Source: a virus (Duplodnaviria > Heunggongvirae > Uroviricota > Caudoviricetes). Taken from it: a stretch of 28,214 nt of DNA. Where the stretch lies: the IMG/VR virus record IMGVR_UViG_3300006143_000348; one strand, 5' to 3'. Below, piece by piece: positions 355 through 28,214 of this stretch. Below the pieces are notes generated by a model that was not told the origin of the DNA, did not search any database, and was given only the letters and a program-made list of their open reading frames with translations. Numbering within the stretch: position 1 is the first letter of the stretch; the number at the start of each line of letters is the position of its first letter. The position numbers were made by a program, and so were the translations under genes.

Positions 355-1932
355 ATGAATATAGCTGCTTACTGTAGGGTGTCTACGGATAAAAGTGACC
401 AGATAAACAGCCTTGAAACGCAGAAGAAATTTTTCCAGGAGTATACAGAAAAAAATGGCCACAAGCTCGTAAGAGTATATGCGGATGAAGGGATTTCCGG
501 TACAAAAATCAAGAATCGAAAAGAATTCCAACAGCTCATGGAGGACTCGAAGCGTGGCATGTTTGATATGGTAGTAGTCAAGGATATCTCCAGATTTGCA
601 CGAAACACGGTGGATTTGCTACAGAGCGTCCGTACATTAAAGGCATTGGGGATTGAGATGACGTTTCTTACAGCCAATATGACCGTGTTAGGGCAGTCGG
701 AGTTTGTTCTGACTATTTTTGGGGCGCTGGCGCAGGAGGAAAGCGCAAATACTTCAAAGCGTATTAAGTTTGGAAAGAAAATGAATGCGGAAAAAGGCAG
801 AGTCCCGAATATTGTCTACGGCTATGATAAAATTTCCGGAGAATATTTCGACATGAAAATCAACAAAGAAGAGGAAAGGATTATCCACCAGATTTACGAC
901 TGGTATACGGAAGGCGGTTATGGCGCGTCAAAAATTGCAAGCATGTTAAATGAAAGAGGGTCTAGGACAAAGCGGAATAGCCGCTGGAGCCAGAACGCCA
1001 TATGTAGGATTTTGACAAACGAGCTTTATACAGGGAAAATCATCAATGGGAAGCAGGAAGTGGCAGATTTTCTAACAGGAGAAAGAAAGGATAAGGATGA
1101 GGCAGAGTGGCTGGTGACAGACAGGCCGGATTTGTGCATTATCCAACAAGAACAGTTTGACAAAGCGCAGGAAATTTTAACGGGCAGGCATAGGGCTTTC
1201 CGTATGAATAGGGAGAGGCAGAGCAATAAATACCTATTTAGTACATTAATTAAATGTAAGGAATGCGGATGGTCATTCCGGCGAACAGCTCGTACATATA
1301 AAAATACCTATGTCCGCTGGGTATGTTCCGGGCGTAATGGTAAGGGGGTAGATAGCTGTCCAAATGCTGTAACGCTGGATGAAGAGGAGTTGATTCTGGA
1401 GCTGGAGTGCTACTTCGCCCAAATGCTGAAATCGAAGAAGAAAGTTACCGAGTATTTGGTGAAGGAGTTTTCAAAAATTTATAAAGAGAAGGATGAAAAT
1501 GTAAACTACAGAAAAGAGTTAGAGGATAGCCTGACGAAGTTGAGGAAAACCCGCCAGAAGTATATGGATATGTATATGGATGACCTGATTAGCCGTGAAG
1601 AGCTGAATAAGAGAATTGGCGGGACGAAAAAAGAGATAGAGCGGCTGGAAAATGACTTGAAGCTAGTGGAGCACAATCTGGACAAGGGCAGCCAGTTGGA
1701 GAACATTATACAGAAAACGTTTAAAAATATGGAAGATATTACTTCAGTCCGTGATATGACTAATGAACAGCTAAAGCAGATTATTCAAAAGATAGAAGTG
1801 GATAAGGAAGGGAATATTGATATTTATATGCGGGTGTTAGGCGACTTAGGGCTGAGCAAGAACGTTCTGATTAGTGACTCCTGTACATACAGGAGTAACA
1901 AAATAGAACGGTTAATATGGAGAATCAAATAG
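355..1932 (+). CDS. Large serine recombinase/integrase (resolvase, recombinase and Zn-ribbon domains)
   Basis: N-terminal AAYCRVST with catalytic Ser, YADEGISG and KDISRFAR motifs, C-terminal CKECG...C...C zinc ribbon and coiled coil; RBS GAAAGG. Confidence 0.95.
   Translation: MNIAAYCRVSTDKSDQINSLETQKKFFQEYTEKNGHKLVRVYADEGISGTKIKNRKEFQQLMEDSKRGMFDMVVVKDISRFARNTVDLLQSVRTLKALGIEMTFLTANMTVLGQSEFVLTIFGALAQEESANTSKRIKFGKKMNAEKGRVPNIVYGYDKISGEYFDMKINKEEERIIHQIYDWYTEGGYGASKIASMLNERGSRTKRNSRWSQNAICRILTNELYTGKIINGKQEVADFLTGERKDKDEAEWLVTDRPDLCIIQQEQFDKAQEILTGRHRAFRMNRERQSNKYLFSTLIKCKECGWSFRRTARTYKNTYVRWVCSGRNGKGVDSCPNAVTLDEEELILELECYFAQMLKSKKKVTEYLVKEFSKIYKEKDENVNYRKELEDSLTKLRKTRQKYMDMYMDDLISREELNKRIGGTKKEIERLENDLKLVEHNLDKGSQLENIIQKTFKNMEDITSVRDMTNEQLKQIIQKIEVDKEGNIDIYMRVLGDLGLSKNVLISDSCTYRSNKIERLIWRIK
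1863..1910. other. Putative intact attP site of the serine integrase
   Basis: cgttctgattagtgactcctgta-CA-tacaggagtaacaaaatagaacg: 19 of 23 arm positions are dyad-symmetric around a central CA, with perfect 9-bp inner and 6-bp outer arms. Confidence 0.75.
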
Positions 1933-1945
1933 GCAGTAAATATAT

Positions 1946-1976
1946 AAGCTCTGAGGCGGAAAATCCTCAGGGCTTT
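1946..1976 (+). terminator. Terminator after the integrase
   Basis: aagctctgagg-cggaaaat-cctcagggctt hairpin with a short T tail. Confidence 0.65.
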
Positions 1977-1982
1977 ATCTAA

Positions 1983-2011
1983 TTGCATTTTGTTTGGGGA
2001 TACTGTAAAAT
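1983..2011 (+). promoter_or_regulatory. SigA-type promoter for the first AAA-ATPase gene
   Basis: TTGCAT-17 bp-TAAAAT. Confidence 0.55.
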
Positions 2012-2051
2012 GGGTATAAGTTTTAAAGGAGCAGGGAAAGAGGTGGTTTAT

Positions 2052-3755
2052 ATGCTAAGGACAGTAGGAATAGGACATCAGGATTTTGAGACGATTCGGA
2101 AAGAAAATTATTTTTATGTAGATAAAACAGCATTCATTCATGAATGGTGGGAAAGAGGGGATAGTGTAACTCTAATTACCCGACCGAGAAGATTTGGGAA
2201 GACATTGAATATGAGCATGTTGGAACAATTCTTTTCTGTAAAATATGTAGGCCGGGGTGACTTGTTTGAGGGGCTGTTTATATGGCAAGAGGGGAAGTAC
2301 AGGGAATTGCAGGGGAAGTATCCAGTTATAGCACTTAGTTTTTCTGATGTGAAGGAAACAACATTTTTGGGAGCGCGGAAAAAGATTTGTAAGATTATCC
2401 AGTTATTATATAACAAGTTTGATTTTTTGCTTGAGGGAGATATGCTCAACAGCAGAGAAAAAGAAGATTTCTGCAGAATTTCTGCTGAGATGGAAGATTA
2501 TATGGCGACTCTTTCTTTAAAAATGCTTTCTGATTATCTGTACCGCTATTACGGGGAGAAAGTGATTATTCTTTTAGACGAGTATGATACGCCTATGCAG
2601 GAAGCCTATGTGAATGGGTATTGGAACGAGCTTGCCGAGTTTACAAGGAGTTTGTTTAATTCTACATTTAAGACGAACCCATACTTGGAACGTGCAGTGA
2701 TGACGGGGATAACAAGAGTTAGTAAAGAGTCAATCTTTTCTGACTTAAATAACCTGAAAGTGGTGACTACCACTTCGGAGGAATATGTAGACAGTTTCGG
2801 ATTTACAGAGGAGGAAGTATTTGCGGCACTGGATGAATATGGTTTGTCGAATAAGAAACAGGATGTAAAAAGCTGGTATGACGGGTTTACTTTTGGCAGT
2901 CTGACAGACATTTACAATCCGTGGTCTATTATCAATTTGCTGGATACGAGACAATTTCGGCCATACTGGGCAAATACCAGTTCTAACAGTCTGGCCGGGA
3001 AGCTTTTGCGTGAGGGGAATAAAAAAGTAAAGCAGGAATTTGAACGGATGTTGCAAGGGGGAATCCTAAAGGCGCAGATAGACGAACAAATTCTATATGA
3101 CCAGCTTACAGGAAAAGAAAGTACTATCTGGAGCCTCCTGCTGGCAAGCGGCTATCTGAAAGCGGTTAGGACGGAATTTGTAGAGCGCACAGGGAGGGTT
3201 TATTATTATCTAGCATTAACAAATAAAGAAGTGAAGATTATGTTTGAAGGGATGATTCAAGACTGGTTTACAGAATACAGTGATAGTTACAATGATTTCA
3301 TTAATGCACTTTTAGTAAATGATTTGAAGGCAATGAATGTATATATGAACAAAGTAGCATTGGCAACGTTTAGTTATTTTGATACTGGGAAAAAGCCCTC
3401 AGAGGAAGAGCCTGAGCGTTTCTATCATGGTTTTGTCCTAGGGTTGATGGTGGATTTGACTGACCGATATATCCTGACTTCGAACCGTGAAAGTGGTTTC
3501 GGACGGTATGATGTGATGCTGGAGCCTAGGGAAAAAGGCGATGATGCAATCATTCTGGAGTTTAAGGTGCGGGATTCAGAGGATGAGAAGGAACTTTCTG
3601 ATACTGTGCAGGAAGCTTTAAAACAGATAGACAGGAAACAGTATGAGGTATCGTTGATAGAGAAGGGAATCCCTAAAGAGAAAATTCGGAAGTATGGGTT
3701 TGCGTTCCAAGGGAAACAGGTATTGATTGGGGGCGGTCAGTATGAGGCTGTATAG
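2052..3755 (+). CDS. AAA-ATPase-like protein with C-terminal PD-(D/E)XK nuclease (DUF1703/PDDEXK_9 type), copy 1
   Basis: Walker A RPRRFGKT, Walker B ILLDEYD, FYHGFVLGL, SNRESGFGRYD, ILEFK. Start moved to ATG 2052 (MLRTVGIG) on the basis of the RBS GAGGTGG and the upstream promoter. Confidence 0.9.
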   Translation: MLRTVGIGHQDFETIRKENYFYVDKTAFIHEWWERGDSVTLITRPRRFGKTLNMSMLEQFFSVKYVGRGDLFEGLFIWQEGKYRELQGKYPVIALSFSDVKETTFLGARKKICKIIQLLYNKFDFLLEGDMLNSREKEDFCRISAEMEDYMATLSLKMLSDYLYRYYGEKVIILLDEYDTPMQEAYVNGYWNELAEFTRSLFNSTFKTNPYLERAVMTGITRVSKESIFSDLNNLKVVTTTSEEYVDSFGFTEEEVFAALDEYGLSNKKQDVKSWYDGFTFGSLTDIYNPWSIINLLDTRQFRPYWANTSSNSLAGKLLREGNKKVKQEFERMLQGGILKAQIDEQILYDQLTGKESTIWSLLLASGYLKAVRTEFVERTGRVYYYLALTNKEVKIMFEGMIQDWFTEYSDSYNDFINALLVNDLKAMNVYMNKVALATFSYFDTGKKPSEEEPERFYHGFVLGLMVDLTDRYILTSNRESGFGRYDVMLEPREKGDDAIILEFKVRDSEDEKELSDTVQEALKQIDRKQYEVSLIEKGIPKEKIRKYGFAFQGKQVLIGGGQYEAV

Positions 3756-3824
3756 AAACAAGCGCATTTGCAAAACGAAGAGATGTAGGATGTGGTATAG
3801 AAAACGGTATGAAATGGAGGTAGG

Positions 3825-5537
3825 ATGATGAGGAAGCCATTGCCGGTAGGTGTTGACAATTTCGAGAAGATAATAAGAGATGGCTATTGTTATGTCGATA
3901 AGACTATGCTGATTAAGGAATTACTTGATTTGAAAGGGGAAGTGAACCTATTTACACGTCCAAGACGTTTTGGAAAAACATTAAATATGAGTATGCTCCG
4001 ATATTTTTTTGAGGATACCGGGAACGAAAAAAGAAATGAGCAAAATAGAGAACTTTTTCAGGGGATGAAGATTATGGAAGCCGGGGAAAGCTACACAAAC
4101 CAGATGGGAATGTATTCTGTGTTTGAGCTGACTTTGAAATCGGCGAAACAGGAAAACTACGATATGGCTTATTACATGATACAAAATGCAGTTAGCACGG
4201 AGTTTGAAAGGCACAGGAGCATTATAGAAGTCGGGAAAGAATGTCTATCCAACAAAGAATATAAAGAGTATACTGATATTGCGGAGGGGCAGGGTGAGGA
4301 AAAAGCAATAAGAAATTCTTTGCGGCTTTTCTGCCAATGTATGTACAAAATTACTGGCAAGAATACAGTTATTCTAATTGACGAGTACGACGTGCCATTA
4401 GAAAATGCATATTTTAGAGGCTTTTATGAAAAGATGGTCAGCTTTATCCGTTCGTTGTTTGAAGCTGCCTTAAAGACAAATCAGTATTTGCAGTTTGCGG
4501 TTATTACTGGGTGCCTGAGGATTTCAAAAGAGAGTATATTTACCGGGTTGAATCATCTGAACATTATTTCTGTGCTTGATAAAAAGTACAGTGAGCATTT
4601 TGGATTTACAGAATCAGAAGTGAGCCAAATGATGTCCTATTATGAAGTAGAAAGCCGCTTTTCGACAATGAAAGAATGGTATGACGGATATTTATTTGGA
4701 GATACAGAGGTTTACAACCCGTGGAGTGTTATTAAGTTTTTATATGATTTATATTCGGACGTCAACGCATTTCCGCGTCCATATTGGATTAATACCAGTT
4801 CAAATGATATTATTAAAGATATGATAGCCAAGGCTGATAGGGAAACGAAGGGGCAGATTGAAGCGCTCTTGAGCGGAAAGACTCTTGATATCCAGGTTCA
4901 TGAGGAAGTCACTTATGGGGACATGTACAGCAGTGATGAGAATTTGTGGAATTTTCTTTACTTTACGGGGTATCTGACGAAGGAAAGCGAATATTTCGAA
5001 GAGACATCAGTTTTTTTACGGGCACGAATTCCGAATATAGAAGTGAAGACGGTCTATCAGAACACGATTCTTAATTGGTTTAAGAATACAATAAAGAAAC
5101 AAAACTTTCATGATTTGTACCAGGCACTGGAAGATGGAAATGCGAAGAGGATGACAAATATACTGACTGAGCAGCTTGCTTATACCATTAGCTTTTACGA
5201 TAGCGCAGAAAATTTTTATCATGGATTTCTTACTGGCATTTTAAGTCAGAGTGAAAATTATCTGGTTAAATCCAACCGGGAATCGGGGTACGGGAGGTCT
5301 GATATTATGGTGAGAAGCCCTTCTTTGCGGGGCAGGTCATTTGTTCTGGAAGTCAAGGTATCAGATTCTATTGATGATTTGGAGAGCGATGCAGAAAAGG
5401 CATTGCAGCAGATATATGAAAAAAGATATAGGGAAGAGCTTCGCACAGAGGGGTATCGGAACATAGACTGTTATGGGGTGTCGTTTTTCCGGAAAGACTG
5501 TGAGGTACGATTTGGGAAAAAGGAAGCACTTTGCTAA
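3825..5537 (+). CDS. AAA-ATPase-like protein with C-terminal PD-(D/E)XK nuclease, copy 2
   Basis: [38 protein letters not shown]; RBS GGAGG. Confidence 0.92.
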
Positions 5538-5896: not shown

Positions 5897-5985
5897 ATTA
5901 TTCCTCCTGGTGAAAAGTGTGTCCAGCAAACAATGAAATTTGTACGCATGGATTACTGGAATGTGAATAGGTACAAAGGTGAAAC

Positions 5986-6020
5986 AAAAAACATCCGCCA
6001 CCTATTGTAGATACCGGATG
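5986..6020 (-). terminator. Terminator after the Panacea TA pair
   Basis: catccg...cggatg stem followed by a T run on the minus strand. Confidence 0.5.
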
Positions 6021-6044
6021 ATTGTATGCTATTATTTATGGAAC

Positions 6045-6497
6045 TTATGTGTGTTTCTTCTGAGAAGGGCATATCTCATGAAGAGGGTCATACCAGAGAA
6101 TATGAAACATTCTTCCTCTGCGAATTCCAATAATGCGCAAAAGGTTTCTAAAAGCAAATGAGAACATGCTGTCGCTGTCATCTTCCATATGTTTTGCTTT
6201 TAGTCTGTCTTGCGCATCTTTAGACATTTTCTCGTAATCTATTAAATGATGCTTTGATTTCCCATTATCATGTGTTTGTTTTTTGATGTCAGCCCAAGTC
6301 ATATTTGAATAATGAATCATCTTTTCAAGAACTTCTTTATGTTCAAAATCATCCCGGGATAAATCAAATGCAAACTTACCTGAACGGTCTATATCTGTAA
6401 ATACCCATACGGGACACTCTCTATCAGTGTTTTTGATTTCGCCTGATATCTTCTTTTCATGGCGCTTTCTGTTTTGTTTTAAAATTTTCTTTGCCAT
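6045..6497 (-). CDS. Putative RelE-fold toxin, partner of the Panacea antitoxin
   Basis: Starts 3 bp downstream of the Panacea gene; MTWADI...KHH and FSFAF...RIIGIR...FHILWYDPLHEICPS resemble MAG6450/RelE-like proteins (recalled, not searched). Confidence 0.6.
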   Translation of the reverse strand: MAKKILKQNRKRHEKKISGEIKNTDRECPVWVFTDIDRSGKFAFDLSRDDFEHKEVLEKMIHYSNMTWADIKKQTHDNGKSKHHLIDYEKMSKDAQDRLKAKHMEDDSDSMFSFAFRNLLRIIGIRRGRMFHILWYDPLHEICPSQKKHT

Positions 6498-6500
6498 AGA

Positions 6501-6935
6501 TTATAAGCTTCCATAGTATTCCCCCATAGAAGATTTAGTGATTACGTTCTGGCATCGTGCACCATCCGGTAAATCACCTCTTGCATCTTTCCAGGGCGAT
6601 TCTTCATGAGTCTGTTCCCTTAAGTCATAAGGTTCTCTGCCTGCGTATCCATTAAGGACGATATCAATTGATTCTTTTTCGTCGTCGTTCAGGCTGTTAT
6701 CGTCTCCTTTAATGATATCTTGTATATCAACAGAGAATTTCCCCTGATGCGCATGGAATAATTCAGGGCATACCGGGCCATTTGACCACGCCTGAAAATC
6801 TTCTGCGAAGATGGGATTACCTGTCCACGCAAGATGCCACGCCTGTGCATAGTAACACAACTTTTGGAGTTTCCATGTGCTCATTTTCCCACATTGACAA
6901 AGGATGTATTTTGCTACATCAAATACACATGCCAT
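6501..6935 (-). CDS. Panacea-domain antitoxin (DUF4065/SocA-like)
   Basis: KLQKLCYYAQ, FQAWSNGPVCPELF and THEESPW are the Panacea signature motifs. Confidence 0.9.
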   Translation of the reverse strand: MACVFDVAKYILCQCGKMSTWKLQKLCYYAQAWHLAWTGNPIFAEDFQAWSNGPVCPELFHAHQGKFSVDIQDIIKGDDNSLNDDEKESIDIVLNGYAGREPYDLREQTHEESPWKDARGDLPDGARCQNVITKSSMGEYYGSL

Positions 6936-8445: not shown

Positions 8446-8530
8446 AGATACTCTTGTCGTATCATATACATTTATGCTATACTGTTTCCGTTGTCATACC
8501 CAATCCGGCAACGGAAAGGGGGTGTGTCCA

Positions 8531-8629
8531 TTGACAGAGTTTGTTATTTCCTTTTTATCCGCTGTCATGGTTAATGTAGCCTGCCACTACATTATCAAAT
8601 GGTTAGACAACGGTAATAATGACAACTAA
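8531..8629 (+). CDS. Type I TA toxin peptide, 32 aa (MTEFVISFLSAVMVNVACHYIIKWLDNGNNDN)
   Basis: TTG start after SD AAGGGGGTG; single hydrophobic helix and KWLD tail; promoter TTGTCG-18-TATACT (8454-8483); 5' ccgttgtc...ggcaacgg hairpin. Confidence 0.8.
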   Translation: MTEFVISFLSAVMVNVACHYIIKWLDNGNNDN

Positions 8630-8657
8630 CCTCGGTCTTGTCCCTCCGTAAAGGGAT

Positions 8658-8735
8658 AAAGAAAACCCCGGAAGTGCCTTTCCGGGGTTTTTGCTTTGTG
8701 TATCCATGACAGATTACTGTCATTTCCTTTTGCCT
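8658..8735 (-). ncRNA. Predicted antisense antitoxin RNA (par/Fst-like), ends approximate
   Basis: Convergent promoter TTGCAA-17-TGnTATAAT (8742-8770), shared terminator aaaaccccggaa...ttccggggtttt (8662-8691), and an imperfect repeat of the toxin start region at 8706-8730. Confidence 0.65.
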
Positions 8736-8810
8736 ATTGGCATTATAGCATATGCATTTCACGTTTGCAATATGCTTTTTGCTGCTTTCCCGGATGTGAA
8801 ATTCCCGTCC

Positions 8811-17946: not shown

Positions 17947-18972
17947 TTACTTAGAAATTAATTTAAAATAGTTAAATGAGCCGTTTAATGCTAAAAACAC
18001 ACTGCTGTCTTCTACGAAATAGCAATCAGAGAGTTCAACGGAGCCCTTCTTTATAGCTACCAATGAGGGGAAGTCGACATTGTTTTGCTTACAGAAAGCT
18101 GGAATTACATCACTGATTTGCATCCGTACAGTTTTATCAAATTTGCTATATTGATTGTTTGGGTCAAACATTGTATAATTTTCTAGTAATTCTATTTCAA
18201 CGAAGAGTGTTTTAATAATTAAATTCCAGTAATCCTCTAGTAGAAAATGAATTAAATCATCCAAGCTTATGCTGTTATTGCAACAGTGTTCTAAAACTAG
18301 AGGATAGGATAATGATAGATAGCTTGTTTTATTCAATTCTGTAATATTACTTCCATAATATTTTTGGATAATTTTATTATCATTATACTTGAGGTTTAAA
18401 ATATAATCTTTTTTTTCTTTAGAAAACTTCTTCCTTTCGGATAAATTATTGCTTAACTTAAAGTATCTATAAAAGATGATATCTAACATAATAGATGATA
18501 GAATGTACTCTAAGTAATTTAAATGCGTTTCAATGTTGATATCAAAATCCTTCTGTGGGTCATATTTCCATTTGGTTTTTTCTCCGAGTTTATATTTATG
18601 AGATGTAATTGATAATGAAATTAAATGACTTATATCACTGCTGTTGTGTTTGTATGCGTCAATTATTTTGTTGTAAATATTATTGTATTTTATATCGTTA
18701 TGTTGCACCAAACATAATCGGATATTATGATATTCAGTAACTACTTTTTCATAATTAGAAACAGAAGTACATTGAATCTTAGAAGGACATTGAGTTTCGC
18801 CTATTTTTTCGCTTATCTGCTTGATAAAATGGTTAACACTATTTACTATTTCCTTCAAATCTGGGGATAACCTCATTATAGAGCGTATATTTTTTAAATC
18901 ATCAGTTTTTAGTTCATTGGGGTATAGAAAAAGCATTTTTCTTTGGTTTTTCTCTGTCATAAATACGTTCAC
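17947..18972 (-). CDS. Hypothetical protein, 341 aa, very AT-rich
   Basis: Long ORF with RBS GGTAGGTG, ending 14 bp upstream of the next gene. Confidence 0.8.
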   Translation of the reverse strand: MNVFMTEKNQRKMLFLYPNELKTDDLKNIRSIMRLSPDLKEIVNSVNHFIKQISEKIGETQCPSKIQCTSVSNYEKVVTEYHNIRLCLVQHNDIKYNNIYNKIIDAYKHNSSDISHLISLSITSHKYKLGEKTKWKYDPQKDFDINIETHLNYLEYILSSIMLDIIFYRYFKLSNNLSERKKFSKEKKDYILNLKYNDNKIIQKYYGSNITELNKTSYLSLSYPLVLEHCCNNSISLDDLIHFLLEDYWNLIIKTLFVEIELLENYTMFDPNNQYSKFDKTVRMQISDVIPAFCKQNNVDFPSLVAIKKGSVELSDCYFVEDSSVFLALNGSFNYFKLISK

Positions 18973-19410
18973 CTACCATATATTTTTTTACATTATATAA
19001 CAAAGAATAGCATTAGTCAACAATATAAAAATCCTTTTCCTAATCCTTAGTCATAAAGTTTATTAAAAAATTGAATATATTTTGACACATCATTTAATCA
19101 ATATGGTTAGTATATGCTTATTCAAATATCAGTATAAATATGTTAAAAATGTGACTATTTCAAGCGTGAAATAAACTGACGAAGCGGCAGCATTTGTTCT
19201 TTGTCTTGCGATAGTTATTTAGGGATGCAAGTGCAACATGCTCGTAGTGCTGGGATTTAGGATACTACCTGGTCTACAGTATCTTCTCTAAGGATACTAT
19301 AGAATTTCACGTTTCCGTTAACCAGAACGGACTTGAAATCAATAGTACATTCTACGAAAAGTAGGATTCTTCGTTACCGAATACGGTAACAAGAGTGGAA
19401 TGAAAGGTGG

Positions 19411-19446
19411 TTGAGCCATAGCATTTAAGCTATGGCTCAATTTTTG
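19411..19446. terminator. Strong hairpin terminator
   Basis: ttgagccatagc-atttaa-gctatggctcaa 12-bp perfect stem plus T run. Confidence 0.8.
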
Positions 19447-19450
19447 TTTC

Positions 19451-19480
19451 AAAATTCAGTCGACTTCCATTCGTTGATAT
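19451..19480. repeat. 30-bp direct repeat, copy A
   Basis: aaaattcagtcgacttccattcgttgatat; 27/30 identical to 21075-21104. Confidence 0.8.
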
Positions 19481-19570
19481 AGCGGGTGATTCGGGTATAG
19501 TTGCAGTAATTAATAGAGAGCATCAGCACTATGTGGTACTTATGCTCTTTGGGTCGCGTAGACAACATAT

Positions 19571-20155
19571 CTAACTTGCTTCTGTAGAAGTAACTTCATC
19601 AGGAACGGCTTCACTAGGAATAGGTTCTGCAGAGGTAGTTTCATCAGGAGCAGTGCCGCTAGGGTTATGCGTTAACCGTTCTTTGTATCTATGTCCATAG
19701 AGGGCTGTGTCATACCTTTGCAGATTATTTATTATTTCAACCATACTTTTTTCTTCCTTTATGTTGAATAGATATTTCGCAATAATTTTTGGTATTATAA
19801 TAAATGAAGTAGTGAGCGATACAAGTGGAGGAATAAAAGTCGCTATTAAATCCAAGACAGCTTGACTATCTAATGTCTTGTTGGTTTTAATTATATTCAA
19901 AACGCTATAAAAAGAATCGTTAAATATAAAAACCATTTTCAACCATATGTATATTGCAACTATAAAAAATGTAAATTTAAAAAGGACTTTCAAATATATG
20001 TTTATTCTTGTAGTATTTTCATATATTTTTAGTAAGTTCGTATATACCGCATTGTGCTTGGGAAGTTCGCAGTAAGCATCTTCCGGTTGCGTCAGAGCGT
20101 CATCTCTGATTGGGATTTCGCTAACACCACTCGTTCCAGCCAACGACCTAAGCAT
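19571..20155 (-). CDS. Two-TM membrane protein coupled to the ImmA/IrrE gene
   Basis: Two hydrophobic segments, IPKIIAKYLFNIKEEK motif, 8-bp overlap with the peptidase gene. Confidence 0.85.
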   Translation of the reverse strand: MLRSLAGTSGVSEIPIRDDALTQPEDAYCELPKHNAVYTNLLKIYENTTRINIYLKVLFKFTFFIVAIYIWLKMVFIFNDSFYSVLNIIKTNKTLDSQAVLDLIATFIPPLVSLTTSFIIIPKIIAKYLFNIKEEKSMVEIINNLQRYDTALYGHRYKERLTHNPSGTAPDETTSAEPIPSEAVPDEVTSTEAS

Positions 20156-20957
20156 AACAACCCACCTCGTACATTCTTTTCAAAACAGATTTTCTAGGAG
20201 CTTTAAATGTATCTGAAAGATAATCCAGAATGAATATAGGGTTGTTACTCTTAGCTCTTGCCTTATTATATTCTTTTAAGAAGGCATCCTTTGGCATAAG
20301 TAAGCTGGCTGCAAAGGCATTTGCACGCTTTTCTGCTTCTGCACTATGACTATTTTTCTTATATGTATTATAGTACACTTCAGACGTATGGTCATAATCA
20401 AACAGATAATGCGCCAATTCATGGGCAATAACAAATCTTTGTTGGTACGGATGTACTTTTCTGTTTGTAAAAATAATGTGGTCTGTCTTAAACTTTTTTA
20501 TGTACTTTTTATTGATACCAATACAACCGGATAAAAACCACAGCAAATCTTGCTGGAATGTATCAAATCCCATCGCTTTTGCGATAGACACTACTGGTGT
20601 AATACAAGAATTTCTATCATCAGTGGTGTCTGGCATGGCAGATAGGATTTCTGATGCCAGATATTCCATATCAGAAGCATAATAAATCTTATTGTTGTAT
20701 TGGCGTTCTTGCTTGATTTTATCAGTAATACTTTGTATGCTTTTTCTCATCTTCTTTTTCCCCTCAATTGTAATGCCCGTCATGCTACCACCATAACTCT
20801 CTTTGGTTAATTTAAAATGCTTATATATATGTAAATCATAAATCATCGCATTAAAACTCCCTGCATACTTGATAACACTATTATACAAGGCTTGTACAAA
20901 ATGATAAATACCCCAGTTAACGCAAGTCATGCCATGATTCATGTTTGCAGATGCCAA
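20148..20957 (-). CDS. ImmA/IrrE-family zinc metallo-endopeptidase
   Basis: QRFVIAHELAH (HExxH) and EKRANAFAASLLMP; true start may be 20783 or 20750. Confidence 0.9.
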   Translation of the reverse strand: MASANMNHGMTCVNWGIYHFVQALYNSVIKYAGSFNAMIYDLHIYKHFKLTKESYGGSMTGITIEGKKKMRKSIQSITDKIKQERQYNNKIYYASDMEYLASEILSAMPDTTDDRNSCITPVVSIAKAMGFDTFQQDLLWFLSGCIGINKKYIKKFKTDHIIFTNRKVHPYQQRFVIAHELAHYLFDYDHTSEVYYNTYKKNSHSAEAEKRANAFAASLLMPKDAFLKEYNKARAKSNNPIFILDYLSDTFKAPRKSVLKRMYEVGCYA

Positions 20958-21074
20958 GACTAGGCAGCAATCTTAAAAATATTACATTTGACACTAATAT
21001 AGTACTAAAAAAGTGTAAGTTTGTCAACATTAGACATATTTTCGTGGCTGTGTGAGTTTATGACATAATACTGG

Positions 21075-21104
21075 AAAACTCAGTCGACTTCGATTCGCTG
21101 ATAT
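21075..21104. repeat. 30-bp direct repeat, copy B
   Basis: aaaactcagtcgacttcgattcgctgatat. Confidence 0.8.
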
Positions 21105-21198
21105 TGTGAGCAATGTCTTTGGGAAAATGCGGTACACTCAGCTTAACAAAGACACTGGTGTTATGATTCGGTTTATTTTTAAGTGGTTATCTTCAGAC

Positions 21199-21330
21199 TC
21201 CACGTTTGTCTGCTTATTGTGAACTACCCACGAGCTAAAGCTCGATGGGCTTCCTGCTTCATCGACCTCGCAACCTACTATCTCCACAGGCGTTAATTCC
21301 GATAGTTCCTACCGTACTCAATATATCTAA
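21199..21330 (-). ncRNA. Predicted TnpB omegaRNA (scaffold plus flanking guide), 5' end approximate
   Basis: Established for this family: the RNA spans the tnpB 3' end through the right end; the predicted guide is aataagcagacaaacgtgga. Confidence 0.5.
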
Positions 21331-22536
21331 GCTACATCGAGTAGTCTTAACCCTTCATTAAGAATATTGATAGCGGCATTAATATCACGGTCATGTACAT
21401 TTCCACATTGAGGGCACGTCCATTCCCTGACAAATAAATTTTTCGTTTCCTCATTAACATACCCACAAATATTACACGTTTGGCTTGATTTAACAAATCG
21501 TCCAATTTTCACATACTGGCGATTATTCCAATCAGATTTATACTGTAATTGTCGTGTCAGTTCATGCCAGCCACAATCAGAAATTGCTTTTGCAAGAGTA
21601 TGATTCTTTACTATATTACTTACAGCCAAATCCTCAGTCACTATCGCTTGGTTTTCGCTTACTAGCTGACTGGATATTTTATGTAAGTAATCTTTTCTGG
21701 TGTTTGAAACCTTTTCGTGTATTTTCGCTACTTTAATTCTCTGTTTGTTCCAATTTTTACTACCTTTTACTTTATGAGATAATTTCTCTGTTCCTTTGCC
21801 AATTTATCTTCATATTTCTTAGTTAGTCTCTTGTTATCAAATTTCTGTCCATTGGAGGTAACAAGTAAATCCTTAATACCTAAATCAATACCAACTATAC
21901 AATCAGCGGGTTCCATTTGTATATGTCCTGTTTCCACAAGGATAGATACAAAATATTTTCCAGATGAAACCTGTGAGATAGTAGCAGATTTTATTTTACC
22001 GTCAAATTTTCTATGCAGTTTTGCTTTTACCAATTTAAGTTTTGGAAGTTTGATTTTGTTTGAATCAAACAATACAGCAATATTTCCGTTTGTAAAATTT
22101 GTTGTGTATGATTTATGACTGTCGTGCTTACTTTTAAATTTCGGATATCCCGCATGTTCCTTGAAAAACTTCTGATATGCAGAATCCATGTTGTAAACTG
22201 CATTTGTCAATGCAAACTTATCAACTTCCTTCAGCCATTCGTATTCTTTCTTTAATGTTTGATTGACATAGTTGTTACAAGCAACTTTATTCATGGATTC
22301 TTTCTGTTTCACATATTTTTCTTTCCTGTATGAAAGAGTATTGTTATATACAAATCTACAACACCCGAACGTCTTTTGTATTTGTTCCTCCTGTTGTCCG
22401 TTTGGATAAATACGGTATTTGTAGGCTTTTAGCATTTACTTGTCACCACCCTTCTGGCTATATATTCTATTTTTATTTTATAAATTACACCCTTAACCCA
22501 TCAGCTAAAGCTAATGGGATTGCGGGCTAAATACTT
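21219..22536 (-). mobile_element. IS200/IS605-family tnpB-only element (IS1341-like)
   Basis: Subterminal hairpins cccacgagctaaagctcgatggg (right end) and cccatcagctaaagctaatggg (left end); right end TCAC at 21219; left end approximate, after TTGAA. Confidence 0.85.
21327..22435 (-). pseudogene. tnpB: TnpB RNA-guided endonuclease split by a 1-nt deletion near 21783
   Basis: MLKAYKYRIYP, GIDLGI (RuvC-I), EDL (RuvC-II), CNICG/CPQCG zinc finger, DRDINAAINI (RuvC-III); one extra A restores EQRKLSHKVKGSKNW. Confidence 0.88.
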
Positions 22537-22632
22537 TTCAACATTCATAAAAGAAAGTAGAAGTTTGTCAAAATGCATGTTATAATAATTTCGTTGTCCA
22601 ACCAATACCCGGCAACGGGAGGAGGTGTTTGG

Positions 22633-22728
22633 ATGGAAATCGTTTCCTCTTTTTTAGTTACTGTCATGGGCGGTGTGGTTTGCCACCTCATCATCAAATG
22701 GCTTGACAGAAAACATACGGACAATTAA
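22633..22728 (+). CDS. Type I TA toxin peptide, 31 aa (MEIVSSFLVTVMGGVVCHLIIKWLDRKHTDN)
   Basis: SD AGGAGGTG, TGnTATAAT at 22581, cgttgtc...ggcaacg hairpin; paralogue of 8531-8629. Confidence 0.85.
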   Translation: MEIVSSFLVTVMGGVVCHLIIKWLDRKHTDN

Positions 22729-22761
22729 TAGCCTAGTGGGTGCTTTGCCACTCTAAAAGAA

Positions 22762-22843
22762 AAGAAGAATCCCCGAACTGTAATTGCAGTACAGTTTGGG
22801 GATTCGTTCTTCGTCCAGATGGACTCGTTTCCTCTTTTTGCCT
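22762..22843 (-). ncRNA. Predicted antisense antitoxin RNA (par/Fst-like), ends approximate
   Basis: Promoter TTGAAA-17-TGnTATAAT (22850-22878), terminator gaatccccgaactgta...tacagtttggggattc, and gatggactcgtttcctcttttt repeating the toxin start gatggaaatcgtttcctcttttt. Confidence 0.7.
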
Positions 22844-22999
22844 ACTGGCATTATAGCATATGCAGTTTTGGATTTCAAGATACTTTTTACCAGTAAAAAT
22901 AGCTAAAGAAAAGCCTCCAAACTCTAGTAACGTAGAATTTTGGGATTCGTTCTTTGCGATGTGTATTTTACGTTTGTAATATCGCATATAATATCCCAA

Positions 23000-23440
23000 A
23001 TCTTACTTTACCAATAAAAAACACTAATGTATAATTAAATCAACAAAAGCGGTAAAATAAATAGTAAAGGAGATGTATCTATGCAAAAGCACATTCATAA
23101 AATAACGCTGCTGCTCCTAACCCTATGCCTCGTCATAGCCGGAGCAATTTCCTCGCCCTCACGAGCATCCGCAGCGAAAATCAAGCTCAGTAAAAAGTCT
23201 GTTACCATCACAAAAGGCAAATCTGTCACTCTCAAGCTAAAAGGCACGAAGAAAAAACCCAAATGGTCTACAAGCAATAAGAAAGTCGCTACGGTCAGTA
23301 AGAAAGGCAAGGTCGTAGGGAAAAAGGCAGGTAATGCCAAGATTACTGCGAAAATAGGGAAGAAGAAGTATGTTTGCAAGGTTAAGGTGACGAAGCCGAA
23401 GCCGGTTCCACGGCCAGTGCCGGAACCGACGCCGCAGCCA
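23000..23440. repeat. ~430-bp direct repeat (promoter + 5' of Ig-LRR), partner ~25833-26270
   Basis: Near-identical DNA; the proteins match through about residue 118 with only a few substitutions. Confidence 0.95.
23007..23035 (+). promoter_or_regulatory. SigA promoter for Ig-LRR gene A
   Basis: TTTACC-17-TGTATAAT; the same architecture occurs at 25838-25866. Confidence 0.6.
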
Positions 23441-23941
23441 GACCCGAGTGCTCCGGTTGTTTTGAATGAAACGAATTGCGAGTATGTCGTGGAAAAGGAT
23501 GGGACTGTTACAGTTAAAGATTTCCCGCAGGATAAAGAATGGACATCTATTATTATTCCGGCTACGTTAGGGGGACGTCCAGTAAAAGTTGTAGACGACA
23601 TTATACATCATAAGAAATTAGTCGAAGTTGTAATATCTGAAGGGATAACGGAAATAACCGATGAGGCATTTCTCATGTGTCCAAATTTAATTAAAATAAC
23701 AATTCCTAGTAGTGTGATAAAGATAATGGGTAAAAAACCAGGATATTATACATCACAATATGATGAAAATGGCAATTATATACTTGACGAGTATGGCAGA
23801 CCGATTCCTTTACCCGCCCCCGTGCCTTATGGCAGTATATTTGTTCCTTCAGACCACCCCAATTTAACTATTTATGGTAAGCCGGGTTCATTTGCCGAAG
23901 AATTTGCAAATAAACAAGGAATATCTTTTAAACCATTATAA
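23081..23941 (+). CDS. Secreted Ig-like (Big_2) + Pro linker + short BspA-type LRR protein A
   Basis: Sec signal ending ASA|AK, Lys-rich Ig domain, PKPVPRPVPEP linker, ISEGITEITDEAFLMCPNLIKITIPSSV LRR_5 unit, LTIYGKPGSFAEEFA cap. Confidence 0.9.
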   Translation: MQKHIHKITLLLLTLCLVIAGAISSPSRASAAKIKLSKKSVTITKGKSVTLKLKGTKKKPKWSTSNKKVATVSKKGKVVGKKAGNAKITAKIGKKKYVCKVKVTKPKPVPRPVPEPTPQPDPSAPVVLNETNCEYVVEKDGTVTVKDFPQDKEWTSIIIPATLGGRPVKVVDDIIHHKKLVEVVISEGITEITDEAFLMCPNLIKITIPSSVIKIMGKKPGYYTSQYDENGNYILDEYGRPIPLPAPVPYGSIFVPSDHPNLTIYGKPGSFAEEFANKQGISFKPL

Positions 23942-23950
23942 AAATTATTA

Positions 23951-23992
23951 GATGGGCTACGCTTCAATGATGTAAGCATAGCCTATCTTTTT
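23951..23992. terminator. Bidirectional terminator between LRR-A and tail tip B
   Basis: gatgggcta-cgctt...aagca-tagcctatc plus T run. Confidence 0.7.
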
Positions 23993-23994
23993 AA

Positions 23995-25809
23995 TTATCG
24001 CCCTACAGGAATAGAAACAGGTTCAGGTGTAGTAGCTTCTGGGACAACCGTTTTTTCTTTTATCTTTTCAACAAACTCATTCTTTTCTTCAAGAGAAATA
24101 TCCTCCCATGAATTATGACTTGCGTGACGTGATTTCGGTGTTGAAGGTTCGGAACCATTTAAGCTGTTGATTTTATTTGATAATTCCTGAATTGCTTTAA
24201 TCAAGTAAGGAATAAATTTATCTGTCTTAATTGAAAGTTTCCCGTTTGATTCATCCTCATGCACTAAATCAGGAAGGACATTTTGTAACTGCTGAGCAAT
24301 CATAGCGATATCCTCATGATTATCATTTTCAATCCAGTCAAATTGTTTTAATTCAATCTGGTTTAAAGTATCCAATGCATTTACTTCTGTAGTTTCGATG
24401 TTTGTTTTGAGTCGGGCATCGGACGGGTTTAAGATATTGAATCCATGCATGTCTATATTCTGATAAAGATGAAGAACTTTTCGTATCTCAGCCTTAGTAG
24501 GTGTAAAAATACATACAGGATTACTATTTTTATCCATAAATGCGAAGTTATTACCATCAGCAATCGTAACAGTTGTTCCGCTTTCGTTTGCTCTAGCCTC
24601 CACACCGTTACTAAAATGCACTGGGTAATTGTCGCAATACAAATCATCCCCTAAGTGTAACCCTTCGTTTTTACCAGGAACAACCCCATCGCGGTAATAC
24701 GCAAGTTTGATATTATTTTCTCCAGCTTCATCAATCGCCGCCCAACACATGTAAGAGCCATCTTCCTGCAAAGTAAAGTGCAGCCCCTTCTCGTCAGGGT
24801 AGCTTTTTAACCCCGTCGAAACCATGCGCCCGATAGGAACCTGGTCGCTAAAGAAGTCCAATCCTTCCTCAGTCAAAACAACGTCATCTTCCCAGATATG
24901 AACATATCCGTTTTCATCGGTGAAGAATTTAGGCACGCCATCATGGCTTATCATTATAACCTCTTTCGGGTTATTGGGGTTTATCGCGACCGTAGTTATC
25001 CCGTTGGTGATTTTCAGACCGTCTTCGTCGAACTGCATCGTGTTCGCATTATTATAGATTCCCATATTCTGGCTGAGAATCATCTTCCCTACCACAACCT
25101 CGCCGTTTATACCAGGCACTTCTTTCATGGTGTTAGTCTTCGGGTCAAGGTAGATAATCCTGCCTATCGCGGCTTTCGAAGTCTTCCAGTTATCGTCGGT
25201 CATTGCAAGAGTGGAGTTAATAATCTTTAACTGCTCGTCAGCATACGAATCCGTGACGGCATCATACTTCCTAAACAGCATCCCGTGCGAATCCCAGGTC
25301 TGCGTCTGGTTATCAACCCCTCCGATAATCTTCGTATTCGTCGCGTCAAGCCCTTTCTCGACCCAGGTGTTCAGGAGAGCCTTGCTTTCCTCGCCCTTTT
25401 CCGCCTGTTTTACGACAGTGCTGTAGTTTGAGGCCATAGCCCTGGCTTTGACAAGCGTCCGGTGTATGTTGCTTCCGCTGTCGGTGGATTTCATCGCATT
25501 CGAGAACTCGATTTGGATGTTGTCCAGCTCGTTGAAATGGATAGTGTAGGAGCGGAGCCGCACACGGTAGAGTATCCCATCAACCCTGACGCGAATCCAG
25601 TTCCCGACAGAGAACTTGTCAACAATCGGGGCGAACTCCGGCATCACCAGCAGGTTCCTGAGCGTCGCAGAGATATTAGGGGAGGGCATACATGCCTTGC
25701 GGATTCTGCCCTGCACGACCTCAAGGTATTTCTGTGCGTTCTTGAAAAGCTCGGCGTTATTAAGTCCGGTGGAGACGTAGCTCTCACCTGAAGTGTAATT
25801 GTAGCAATT
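23995..25809 (-). pseudogene. 5'-truncated (silent?) tail-spike cassette with S74-type intramolecular chaperone, tip B
   Basis: Open frame from a stop at 25810-25812 with no good RBS/start; GLNNAELF...FSVGNWIRVRVDG tail motifs; SDARLKTNI...IAQQLQNVLPDLV...LIKAIQEL chaperone. Confidence 0.75.
25243..25311. repeat. 69-bp perfect direct repeat shared with 28146-28214 (cut by the window edge)
   Basis: atacgaatccgtgacggc...gtctgcgtctggtt is identical in both; the adjacent ~250 bp are diverged but alignable. Confidence 0.95.
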
Positions 25810-25837
25810 CTACCTCTTATGTCGCATATGATATTAC

Positions 25838-25866
25838 TTTACTAACAGAAAATACCAATGTATAAT
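25838..25866 (+). promoter_or_regulatory. SigA promoter for Ig-LRR gene B
   Basis: TTTACT-17-TGTATAAT. Confidence 0.6.
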
Positions 25867-25911
25867 TAAATCAACAAAAGCGATGAAATAAATAGTAAAG
25901 GAGATGTATCT

Positions 25912-26841
25912 ATGCAAAAGCACATTCATAAACTAACGCTGTTGTTCCTAACCCTATGTCTCGTCATAGCCGGAGCAATTTCCTCGCCCTCACGAGCATC
26001 CGCAGCGAAAATCAAGCTCAGTAAAAAGTCTGTTACCATCACAAAAGGCAAATCTGTCACTCTCAAGCTAAAAGGCACGAAGAAAAAACCCAAATGGTCT
26101 ACAAGCAATAAGAAAATCGCTACGGTCAGTAAGAAAGGCAAGGTCGTAGGGAAAAAAGCGGGTAATGCCAAGATTACTGCGAAAATAGGGAAGAAGAAGT
26201 ATGTTTGTAAGGTTAAGGTGACAAAACCGAAGCCGGTTCCACGACCTGTGCCGGAACCGACACCGCAACCGCAGCCTATTCCCAGTGAGCCTGAATACCC
26301 AACATATGGTGATTTTTCTTATTGGGTAGATGAAACCGGACAGGTGGAAAAAGGAGCCATTGTAATTTCGAAATATAATGGTCAGGATAAAGTTGTAACT
26401 ATACCGTCAACGATAAACGGATTGCCGGTTAGAGCAATTGGGGCTTATGCGTTTTCAGAATGTACGACCTTGACAGAGGTCAAGATACCTGAAGGGGTAA
26501 CAACAATAAGGCAGTATGCATTTTGGAGATGTACTAATTTGGTAAGCATAAACATACCTAATAGTGTAACCCAGATAGGTAGCTGCGTATTTGTACAGTG
26601 TAGTAGTTTAAGGAATATAGATATTCCAGCTAATTTAACCAAAATATTAATATACACATTTTCAGGCTGTACCAATTTAACAAAAGCAGTAATTCCTTCC
26701 AGTGTAACGTCTATACATCCTGATGCTTTTGAAGATTGCCCTAATTTAACTATTTATGGTTACGAAGGAACACATGCTAGTTCTTATGCGTCAAGTAACA
26801 AAATACCCTTTGTTGATTTAGCAGAAGATAACGAACATTAA
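25912..26841 (+). CDS. Secreted Ig-like + Pro linker + BspA-type LRR protein B
   Basis: Same N-terminus as protein A, then several IPxxVTxIxxxAFxxCxxL LRR_5 repeats. Confidence 0.92.
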   Translation: MQKHIHKLTLLFLTLCLVIAGAISSPSRASAAKIKLSKKSVTITKGKSVTLKLKGTKKKPKWSTSNKKIATVSKKGKVVGKKAGNAKITAKIGKKKYVCKVKVTKPKPVPRPVPEPTPQPQPIPSEPEYPTYGDFSYWVDETGQVEKGAIVISKYNGQDKVVTIPSTINGLPVRAIGAYAFSECTTLTEVKIPEGVTTIRQYAFWRCTNLVSINIPNSVTQIGSCVFVQCSSLRNIDIPANLTKILIYTFSGCTNLTKAVIPSSVTSIHPDAFEDCPNLTIYGYEGTHASSYASSNKIPFVDLAEDNEH

Positions 26842-26859
26842 TTATTTTGTGATATTTGT

Positions 26860-26910
26860 ATATCCTCCAGACCGAACTTTTAACTTTTGATTCAGCCTGG
26901 AGGATATTTG
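26860..26910. terminator. Bidirectional terminator between LRR-B and tail tip A
   Basis: atatcctccag...ctggaggatat 11-bp perfect stem. Confidence 0.7.
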
Positions 26911-26912
26911 AT

Positions 26913-28214
26913 TTAAATATTTATCATCCGTTCCAATTCTCTGATTTTAGCTTCGAGCATGTTGATTCTTTCATCTTTTTCTTTGTCCTTTTCAACTAAA
27001 TCTTTAACTATAGGAATCAATAAAGTCCATAGCTTTTCGTACATGATTCCTTCCACTTCACCCTCAGAATTGTACGTACAATATTTTGATAATCCTGCGT
27101 CGACAACGTCCTCAGCAATCAGCCCATAACAAGAATCAATGGTATCAATAGTACTATCTATATCAGGGTTCAGCTCATCTCCATTATATACCGCAGTGAG
27201 AACTTCGGCATAATTTTCTATGGATGTTTTATCGAACCATTGTTTAGGTATTAGCTGTAGAATATTGTAGGCGTAATCAGAGTTTTCCTCTAATGGTTTA
27301 ATATTCAGCTTATATTTAGAGGCAGAGGTTGCGCGGGTGAAACGGTTTGCAGAGTTTATGTAAACATTTGCTGTACCGCCTGTAGTATTGTACACATTCG
27401 ATGAATATAACGCACCATCAAATTTTGTAGCGCCTGAGAAGGTAGCTTCTCCATTAGTGCCATTAATAGAAACATAGGAAGTAGAAGAAGCTTTACCATC
27501 AGGAGTATAAGACAATTTTCCACACAGATGTATATTTGAATTACTAATTATATCAACATCTCCAACGGAGCCAATAGAAACGTAGGGTGTTTCTCGGTCT
27601 TCTCCGATTCCGTTGTATAAATCTAAATGTCCCATAAATTTATTGAAAGCACCTTTTAAGTACGCAAAGAATCGGTTTCTACGCAAACCATACTGCTTAA
27701 TTTTTGTTCCATCATTAAAATACGCAGTCAACCCCTCAGCGTCGCCATCATCAATATTGAACATTGACACTTTACCACTCGTAGCATTTATGCATCCAGT
27801 TACCTCTAAATCACCATCCTCATTAAATTTCAATACATCCGTATCTCCGTTCTTAATGTTCATTAGACATTCATCATTCGGGTTGACCGTGAACGTATTT
27901 ACACCATTACTTACTTCAAGCCCGTCTTCGGTAAACCTCATCGTGTTCGCAGCATTATAGATGCCTAAGTTCTGTCCCAAAATCAGCCTGCCTACAAGAA
28001 CTTCGCCGTTTATACCATAACCCTCTTTCGAGGTATCGTTTTCCGGGTCGTAGTAAATAATCTTGCCCACAGCAGTCTTTGAGGTCTCCCAGTTATCATC
28101 GGTAATCGCAAGCGTGGAATTAATGATTTTCATCTGTTCGTCAGTATACGAATCCGTGACGGCATCATACTTCCTAAACAGCATCCCGTGCGAATCCCAG
28201 GTCTGCGTCTGGTT
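26913..28214 (-). CDS. 3' part of a phage tail spike/fibre with S74-type chaperone, tip A (runs off the window)
   Basis: Frame open to the window end (NQTQTWDSHGMLFRKYD); TSASKYKLNI...YGLIAEDV...IMYEKLWTLLIPIVK chaperone. Confidence 0.85.
   Translation of the reverse strand, partial: NQTQTWDSHGMLFRKYDAVTDSYTDEQMKIINSTLAITDDNWETSKTAVGKIIYYDPENDTSKEGYGINGEVLVGRLILGQNLGIYNAANTMRFTEDGLEVSNGVNTFTVNPNDECLMNIKNGDTDVLKFNEDGDLEVTGCINATSGKVSMFNIDDGDAEGLTAYFNDGTKIKQYGLRRNRFFAYLKGAFNKFMGHLDLYNGIGEDRETPYVSIGSVGDVDIISNSNIHLCGKLSYTPDGKASSTSYVSINGTNGEATFSGATKFDGALYSSNVYNTTGGTANVYINSANRFTRATSASKYKLNIKPLEENSDYAYNILQLIPKQWFDKTSIENYAEVLTAVYNGDELNPDIDSTIDTIDSCYGLIAEDVVDAGLSKYCTYNSEGEVEGIMYEKLWTLLIPIVKDLVEKDKEKDERINMLEAKIRELERMINI

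Follow-up and report, generated by a model that had tools for sequence, protein, structure and literature searches.

A tandem array of headless tail-fibre copies and secreted leucine-rich repeat genes in a mouse-gut phage: a probable reservoir of exchangeable tail tips

Introduction

Host range is a central variable in phage ecology and phage therapy, and the known built-in means of changing it depend on an enzyme of their own, an invertase or a reverse transcriptase. In the G/Gin system of Mu, C/Cin of P1, Pin of e14 and Min of p15B, a constant 5' part of a tail-fibre gene is served by alternative adjacent 3' cassettes, each tip traveling with a linked partner gene, and a small serine invertase switches them reversibly at short inverted crossover sites. 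Here we describe a different arrangement at the right-hand end of a 28,214-nucleotide stretch of Caudoviricetes DNA (IMG/VR virus record IMGVR_UViG_3300006143_000348; the whole stretch is called the window): a tandem array in which truncated copies of a tail-fibre gene alternate with genes for secreted leucine-rich repeat (LRR) proteins.

The layout has a likeness among bacteria. The pilE/pilS system of Neisseria and the vlsE/vls system of Borrelia likewise consist of one expressed locus and promoterless, 5'-truncated copies with conserved flanks that are used by homologous recombination; there, non-reciprocal gene conversion of short segments has been shown experimentally. The pairing of a tail gene with a second gene also has a counterpart. 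In phage T5, llp, which encodes a receptor-blocking lipoprotein, adjoins the gene for the receptor-binding protein, lies on the other strand and varies together with receptor specificity; its product is small and has a demonstrated function. As to acquisition of new tips, De Paepe et al. 2014 (PMC3945230) describe temperate phages that gain tail-fibre DNA from defective prophages by relaxed recombination: phage annealing proteins of the Rad52-like type join homologous segments that have diverged, and tail-fibre modules are swapped as a result. A full-text literature search on silent or partial tail-fibre cassettes found no description of an array such as the one reported here.

In this study, we examine the repeats, genes and relatives of the array. 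We conclude, with a probability of about 0.6, that it is the downstream end of a series of tandem tail-tip cassettes in a large temperate mouse-gut phage, and that the series serves as a recombination-driven reservoir of exchangeable modules, each made up of a tail tip and an LRR gene.

Results

Organization of the array

Taken as the reverse complement, the first 28,214 bases of a 69,188-bp IMG/VR record make up the window; the completeness of the record is estimated at 58%. An earlier inspection of the letters and open reading frames (the sequence-only reading) had proposed two direct-repeat units, with offsets of 2831 and 2903 bp, each holding an LRR gene on the plus strand, a terminator and a tail gene on the minus strand, and these repeats and reading frames were recovered. 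The left repeat pairs 23000-23439 with 25831-26270 (95% over 440 bp, offset 2831), as expected from the claim that the LRR promoter and 5' end are nearly identical, and extends about 20 bp more, to ~22979, once a 9-bp indel is allowed. The right repeat pairs 24973-25311 with 27876-28214 (78% over 339 bp, offset 2903), with an identity that climbs toward the window edge and reaches the previously noticed 69 identical final bases. Position 28214 is the end of the contig and lies inside a repeat, directly after those bases; this record offers no further sequence to the right. The parts of the array within the window are as follows.

22979-23080, plus strand: left border of the array and start of the unit B conserved block; LRR-B is preceded here by a promoter-like site (23007-23035) and by a strong ribosome-binding site; the flank to the left is unrelated
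23081-23941, plus strand: LRR-B gene, 286 aa, first ~120 codons conserved and remainder variable
23942-23994, both strands: predicted bidirectional terminator hairpin of unit B (z -4.5 on plus, -3.5 on minus)
23995-25809, minus strand: tail cassette B, a 604-codon open frame (open reading frame as called, 23995-25716)
24973-25793, minus strand: blocks R and U' of cassette B, its conserved tail segment, equal to full-length codons ~655-930
25794-25830, no strand: junction J, where the truncated tail copy is joined to the left border of the next LRR unit; frame-closing TAG at 25810-25812
25831-26270, plus strand: unit A counterpart of 23000-23439 (95% identical), with the conserved LRR promoter and 5' part; promoter-like site 25838-25866
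25912-26841, plus strand: LRR-A gene, 309 aa, with signal peptide, Big_2 and BspA-type LRR_5
26842-26912, both strands: predicted bidirectional terminator hairpin of unit A (z -3.2 on plus, -7.0 on minus)
26913-28214, minus strand: tail cassette A, open at the window edge and cut by the contig end

Among units, a block of ~0.9-1.3 kb that is nearly identical alternates with a variable block of ~1.6-1.9 kb that holds the LRR domain, the terminator and the tail tip. The conserved inter-cassette block comprises tail codons ~655-830, junction J, the LRR promoter and the first ~120 LRR codons, with an identity of 97-100%. The variable module is that of the sequence-only reading; the two separate anchors thought to bracket it proved to be halves of one continuous block. 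The conserved tail segment of cassette B is homology that would permit recombination with other copies. In both convergent gene pairs, the intergenic gap forms strong hairpins on both strands with A/T-run flanks (z -3.2 to -7.0), and we regard the predicted bidirectional terminators, which had been proposed before, as real.

The tail genes are copies without a head

The frame of cassette B is open up to 25809, where a TAG closes it 21 bp from the repeat border at 25831. Residues 7-279 of this extended frame align to residues 650-923 of a 1255-aa tail protein whose gene, in a related phage, is preceded by tape-measure and Dit-like genes. An exhaustive search returned 2070 relatives of cassette B; the best 150 are mostly 1200-2400 aa long and match over a segment at ~645-930. 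No Shine-Dalgarno sequence lies at a usable distance from any candidate start of cassette B. By these alignments, cassette B is a start-less copy of residues ~650-1250 of a full-length tail-fibre gene, and its earlier description as a stored copy without a proper start holds.

Whether tip A belongs to a full-length tail gene or to another unit had been posed as a check, and comparison with a 5-kb contig from another sample (L021) shows that it is not the expressed gene. In L021, the sequence that corresponds to tail A (99.8% identical) is a truncated copy of 544 aa; upstream of it come the conserved tail segment and junction known from the window, and after them the 5' end of another LRR gene. 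Read depth, given below, also points to two junction copies. Judged from these alignments, both tail A and tail B are 5'-truncated at one shared junction, at about codon 655. The sequence of junction J was identical in every cassette examined, which argues that the junction arose once and that the units multiplied later. Within J, on the minus strand (25810-25827), all copies also share an identical five-codon open reading frame from ATG to TAG, in the cassette frame. One TAG parts its ATG from the 604-codon cassette frame, which would matter if that TAG were read through; the mini-frame is probably meaningless.

The variable ends of the two tails differ. Tail B carries an S74 chaperone (Pfam Peptidase_S74, 54 bits, residues 432-486), as does the full-length gene with a C-type tip in a related contig, L035 (41 bits, residues 1145-1202). 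Tail A has no Pfam match, and its end resembles the C-terminal ends of PHROG tail proteins. Sequence comparison gave no significant match between tips A and B, and protein queries with either tip found no relatives among viral contigs. The claim that both 3' ends of the units are unrelated is upheld for the tips and fails for the LRR domains, which are both of BspA type and 32% identical. Two short homologues, P0077 and P0020, seemed to begin where the cassette begins, as cassettes in other lineages would, and were rejected as a scaffold-gap fragment and a contig-edge fragment, respectively.

More than six cassettes of 544-607 codons contain no internal stop or frameshift, all of their indels being in frame, and between alleles of the cassettes dN/dS lies at 0.14-0.35, in the tips and also in the LRR domains. 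Open frames together with low dN/dS indicate selection on coding function during divergence, the timing of which they do not fix.

Each tip is found with its own LRR domain

LRR-B and LRR-A each consist of a signal peptide, a lysine-rich Big_2 domain, a proline linker and an LRR domain. LRR_5 scores are 118.5 bits for LRR-A (with 35.9 bits for Big_2), 105 bits for LRR-C and 113 bits for LRR-E; LRR-B, at 23.5 bits, falls under the cut-off of 27.7 and is a degenerate member. Each LRR gene has a conserved promoter-like site and a strong ribosome-binding site of its own, and therefore all LRR copies can be expressed, with the proviso that promoter-like matches are no commoner than in shuffled sequence and that the promoter call draws on conservation and position only. 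At least eight alleles of the secreted protein have the N-terminal 120 residues in common at 98-99% identity. In one of them (P0151), a long Pro/Thr linker and a LysM domain stand in place of the LRR domain behind those same residues. The protein would appear to be built of a conserved export and wall-association module and a variable surface-binding module. The LRR proteins are probably surface proteins of the lysogen; that they act on the same receptor as their own tip, in superinfection exclusion, is speculation.

In every unit that shows both halves (A, A2, A3, B, B2 and C), the tip and the LRR domain are of the same type, and their identities between units are given here.

A and A2: tip 85%, LRR domain 84%
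B and B2: tip 67%, LRR domain 72%
A and C: tip 38%, LRR domain 45%
A and B: tip none, LRR domain 32%

The claim that a tip stays with its own LRR domain, for which co-occurrence in relatives had been named as the test, is borne out in this way. The pairing extends to a distant phage (L052, 47% in the tail N-terminal part), where a full-length gene with a B-type tip (60% over 603 aa) lies near an LRR gene that is likewise of B type, a MazE/PIN pair being inserted between the two. A tip would keep its partner because no conserved sequence lies between them, and the co-occurrence could be explained by physical linkage alone.

Variable LRR domains were also met in other settings. In L056, at 5909-6817, a C-type LRR domain stands behind a different signal peptide and adjoins a Tn916-type Xis and a tyrosine integrase at an element edge, with host ABC-transporter genes nearby, which indicates that the variable domains circulate beyond this phage lineage too. 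In run X17, the dominant strain (~167x) has, over 26396-26860, 89 differences clustered in the C-terminal domain of LRR-A, and unit B is present at ~10x; this pattern implies that the LRR domain and the content of the array turn over at strain level inside one sample. Relatives of the LRR N-terminus in two other viral contigs (L009 and L011) had an uninformative context.

Related genomes hold the same modules in use and in storage

The order in L021 is LRR-D, J, cassette C, LRR-C, J, cassette A. Similar arrays were found with the cassettes E-A2 (L022), C-A2 (L037) and A-A2 (L020), next to C-A in L021. The picture of a two-unit array therefore has to be given up, since arrays reach at least three units (L021) and a full-length gene lies further upstream (L035). 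The latter case, at the end of a 53-kb contig, reads in order: a 2614-aa tape measure, a 102-aa gene, a Dit-like DUF6558 gene, a 1253-aa tail gene, LRR-C, J and the start of a cassette. Its full-length tail gene carries tip C with the S74 chaperone. L035 and L021 are 98.9% identical over 3.3 kb, and their homology stops at about codon 655 of the full-length gene; accordingly, tip C and LRR-C are on an expressed 5' half in L035 and in a headless cassette in L021. In that L021 cassette, the first ~30 nt past the junction are of cassette type and the sequence that follows is of expressed-gene type, a mosaic such as a crossover right where the homology begins leaves behind.

The backbone of L035 recurs in a 127-kb contig, L046 (98.3% from the tape measure to about tail codon 1085), whose full-length gene has an A-type tip followed by an A-type LRR gene and no cassettes, which is the single-unit state. 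Gene order is shared by L035, L046 and L003: tape measure, a gene of ~100-120 aa, a DUF6558 Dit-like gene and a tail gene of 1253-1288 aa. In these relatives, the full-length tail gene occupies what gene order marks as the Tal position of a siphovirus-type tail module. None of the tape-measure gene, the Dit-like gene and the tail N-terminal part was found on the contig of the window itself. Across genomes, then, the layout is that of a silent-cassette system, with one expressed copy and several promoterless, 5'-truncated copies that share conserved segments.

The junction recurs in independent assemblies

The junction stretch is present in 20 public runs from 13 studies, all of mouse gut or related samples. 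Logan contigs from four mouse-gut runs span 25830/25831, three with 0-1 differences and the fourth with a variant. Misassembly, which the sequence-only reading had named as a possible refutation, is excluded by this recurrence. Where depth could be compared, the junction stood at 9.7 against 5.7 and 4.3 for unit-specific contigs, at 9.8 against 4.2 and 4.7, and at 9.3 against 5.3, a ratio of ~2:1, as expected if the genome has the junction twice; this also explains why the assembler stopped at 28214. The only joints seen in Logan contigs were inside a neighbouring toxin-antitoxin repeat. Neither the exact junction pattern, sought in viral contigs, nor a conserved 33-mer, sought in species-representative genomes, gave a match.

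Recombination genes and the surroundings of the array

The same genome encodes, outside the window, a single-strand annealing protein of the ERF family (G000:C1:43231-43689, minus strand, locus L057; open frame of 236 aa; 52 bits, cut-off 25), which from this match is a candidate catalyst of array rearrangement; proteins of this sort favour annealing of repeats that have diverged (PMC3945230). The RecT and YqaJ families had no match in this genome fragment. No inverted repeats of at least 20 bp occur in 18000-28214, and the only serine recombinase found, at 355-1932, is a large integrase-type protein 21 kb from the array. Repeat searches revealed no repeat pair of a diversity-generating retroelement (a ~100-bp template variant with adenine-specific changes); the variable blocks are 1.6-1.9 kb of unrelated sequence. 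The earlier claim that neither an invertase nor a reverse transcriptase is needed agrees with these results, no invertase site and no reverse-transcriptase signature being involved.

The remaining observations concern the flanks. Just left of the array, at 21327-22435 on the minus strand, two open reading frames form a relic of an IS605-family TnpB (OrfB), a broken transposon nuclease, in pieces of 222 aa (helix-turn-helix and start of the OrfB domain) and 104 aa (Cas12f-like TNB domain). A repeat family of ~310 bp, with 66-82% identity and in both orientations, is present at 22558-22887, at 8473-8782 and in two copies that lie ~25 kb before the first position of the window; in Logan contigs its depth is very high and loose ends are numerous, and one copy directly adjoins the array. 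At 355-5537 on the plus strand are three large tandem open reading frames of 525, 590 and 570 aa, of which the first is the large serine recombinase (integrase) and the second and third (590 and 570 aa) have no PHROG match.

Discussion

The data suggest a model for how the array would work. Upstream there would be one full-length tail-fibre gene of ~1250 aa behind tape-measure and Dit-like genes, as is seen in relatives, and each unit would contribute a promoterless and start-less copy of the last ~550-600 codons together with an intact secreted Big_2 and LRR gene, the two running toward a terminator that they share. Homologous recombination or single-strand annealing, through host RecA or phage ERF, would take place between the conserved tail segments of the expressed gene and of a cassette, and direct repeats of ~1 kb lead one to expect recombination during phage replication. 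A crossover between the expressed gene and a cassette would fuse the 5' half to a stored tip, changing receptor specificity, and would delete the intervening units, so that the former tip and its LRR partner are lost; if both partners of the crossover are cassettes, the array would only be shortened. Unequal crossover between genomes would add units and move a formerly expressed tip into storage, as the L021 footprint suggests. Switching as such is proposed from the comparison of genomes. The sequence-only reading had foreseen that a crossover would collapse the array, and relatives show exactly the states expected from it; no recombinant junction was seen within one population. It had also proposed that a surface protein is co-switched with the tip, of which half is right: deletion would remove the LRR partner of the discarded tip, and it would switch none on, all LRR copies being expressible.

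Several facts weigh against the reservoir reading and are set out with it. The silence of the cassettes is predicted from sequence. The full-length tail gene of the genome in question lies off the contig. In their conserved tail segment, cassettes A and B reach only ~83% identity with the known full-length genes, and at this identity the rate of exchange with an expressed copy would drop. Neither the predicted deletion junctions nor recombinants nor a unit-sized circle occurred in the Logan contigs of the four runs, which drop rare variants and cannot show rare forms. Low dN/dS, finally, could stem from periods of each tip at an expressed site. Some of these facts are at home in the main rival, according to which the cassettes are inert by-products, dead remnants of repeated unequal crossovers at a hot spot that are never re-used and are carried along with useful LRR genes: copies with no start codon or ribosome-binding site, ~17% divergence of their conserved segment from that of the expressed gene and the absence of recombinants from the contigs of four runs would all follow, and the interval between tail and lysis genes is a cargo hot spot with a transposase relic and toxin-antitoxin modules. 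We nevertheless consider this rival less likely, since dead remnants would hardly account for more than six cassettes of 544-607 codons without a stop or frameshift at a dN/dS of 0.14-0.35, for the presence of C and A modules on full-length genes in near-identical backbones, or for conserved blocks that are 97-100% identical among units.

The truncated copies might instead be extra fibres, translated from an internal start under a promoter divergent from the LRR gene, for a multivalent baseplate. There are known phages whose several fibres have an N-terminal module in common; in the array, the frames are open, internal ATG or GTG starts are chosen by gene callers, and the junction has a weak promoter-like site (9/12 matches) on the tail strand. 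This is improbable: the promoter-like matches of the region are no commoner than in shuffled sequence, cassettes lack a workable Shine-Dalgarno where the LRR genes have a strong one, the copies are without ~650 N-terminal residues, homology to the middle of the full-length gene reaches the junction itself, and apparent short homologues elsewhere are contig-edge or gap fragments. Most improbable of all is an artefact in which the assembler chained two strain variants of a single-unit locus. The contig does end within a repeat after 69 identical bases, and the samples are metagenomes with several strains (run X17, for example); against this, the junction has a sequence of its own, common to neither flank, is bridged by contigs of other assemblers in at least eight assemblies or runs, and keeps a steady 2:1 depth relative to unit-specific contigs in three studies. 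The reservoir of tip and LRR modules is the reading that we retain. A stronger form of it is possible, and we put it forward tentatively: a selected, pilS-like switching device that archives whole receptor-binding tips and retrieves them through homologous recombination or annealing, in which the paired LRR (or LysM) protein would recognize the same host structure and shield the lysogen against phages bearing any tip of the repertoire.

If the reservoir reading is correct, it would explain the contig breaks of such phages at this place, and the diversity of receptor binding would be underestimated in short-read viromes. That a tip is constantly paired with a secreted binding protein is a testable lead on how lysogens might exclude related phages, and a phage that is common in laboratory mice (13 studies) makes the proposals open to experiment.

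The resemblance to T5 llp lies in the placement of a gene for an exported protein beside the receptor-binding gene on the opposite strand; the LRR proteins have a different fold and no lipobox, and their role is proposed from sequence. With pilS and vls the array shares its layout, and it differs from them in being phage-borne, in comprising whole modules of 1.6-1.9 kb, in having an intact second gene per module and in being known from genome comparison only. In the system of De Paepe et al. (PMC3945230), the donor copies are in the host chromosome, whereas here they form an ordered array in cis in the phage. Compared with the invertase switches of Mu, P1, e14 and p15B, the repeats are direct, the homology amounts to ~1 kb, there is no adjacent invertase and switching by deletion would run in one direction only; the opposite-strand partner gene codes for a secreted LRR protein, in place of a protein for fibre assembly. 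A row of stored tips that ordinary recombination reads out would, if true, be a third and enzyme-free route to a change of host range.

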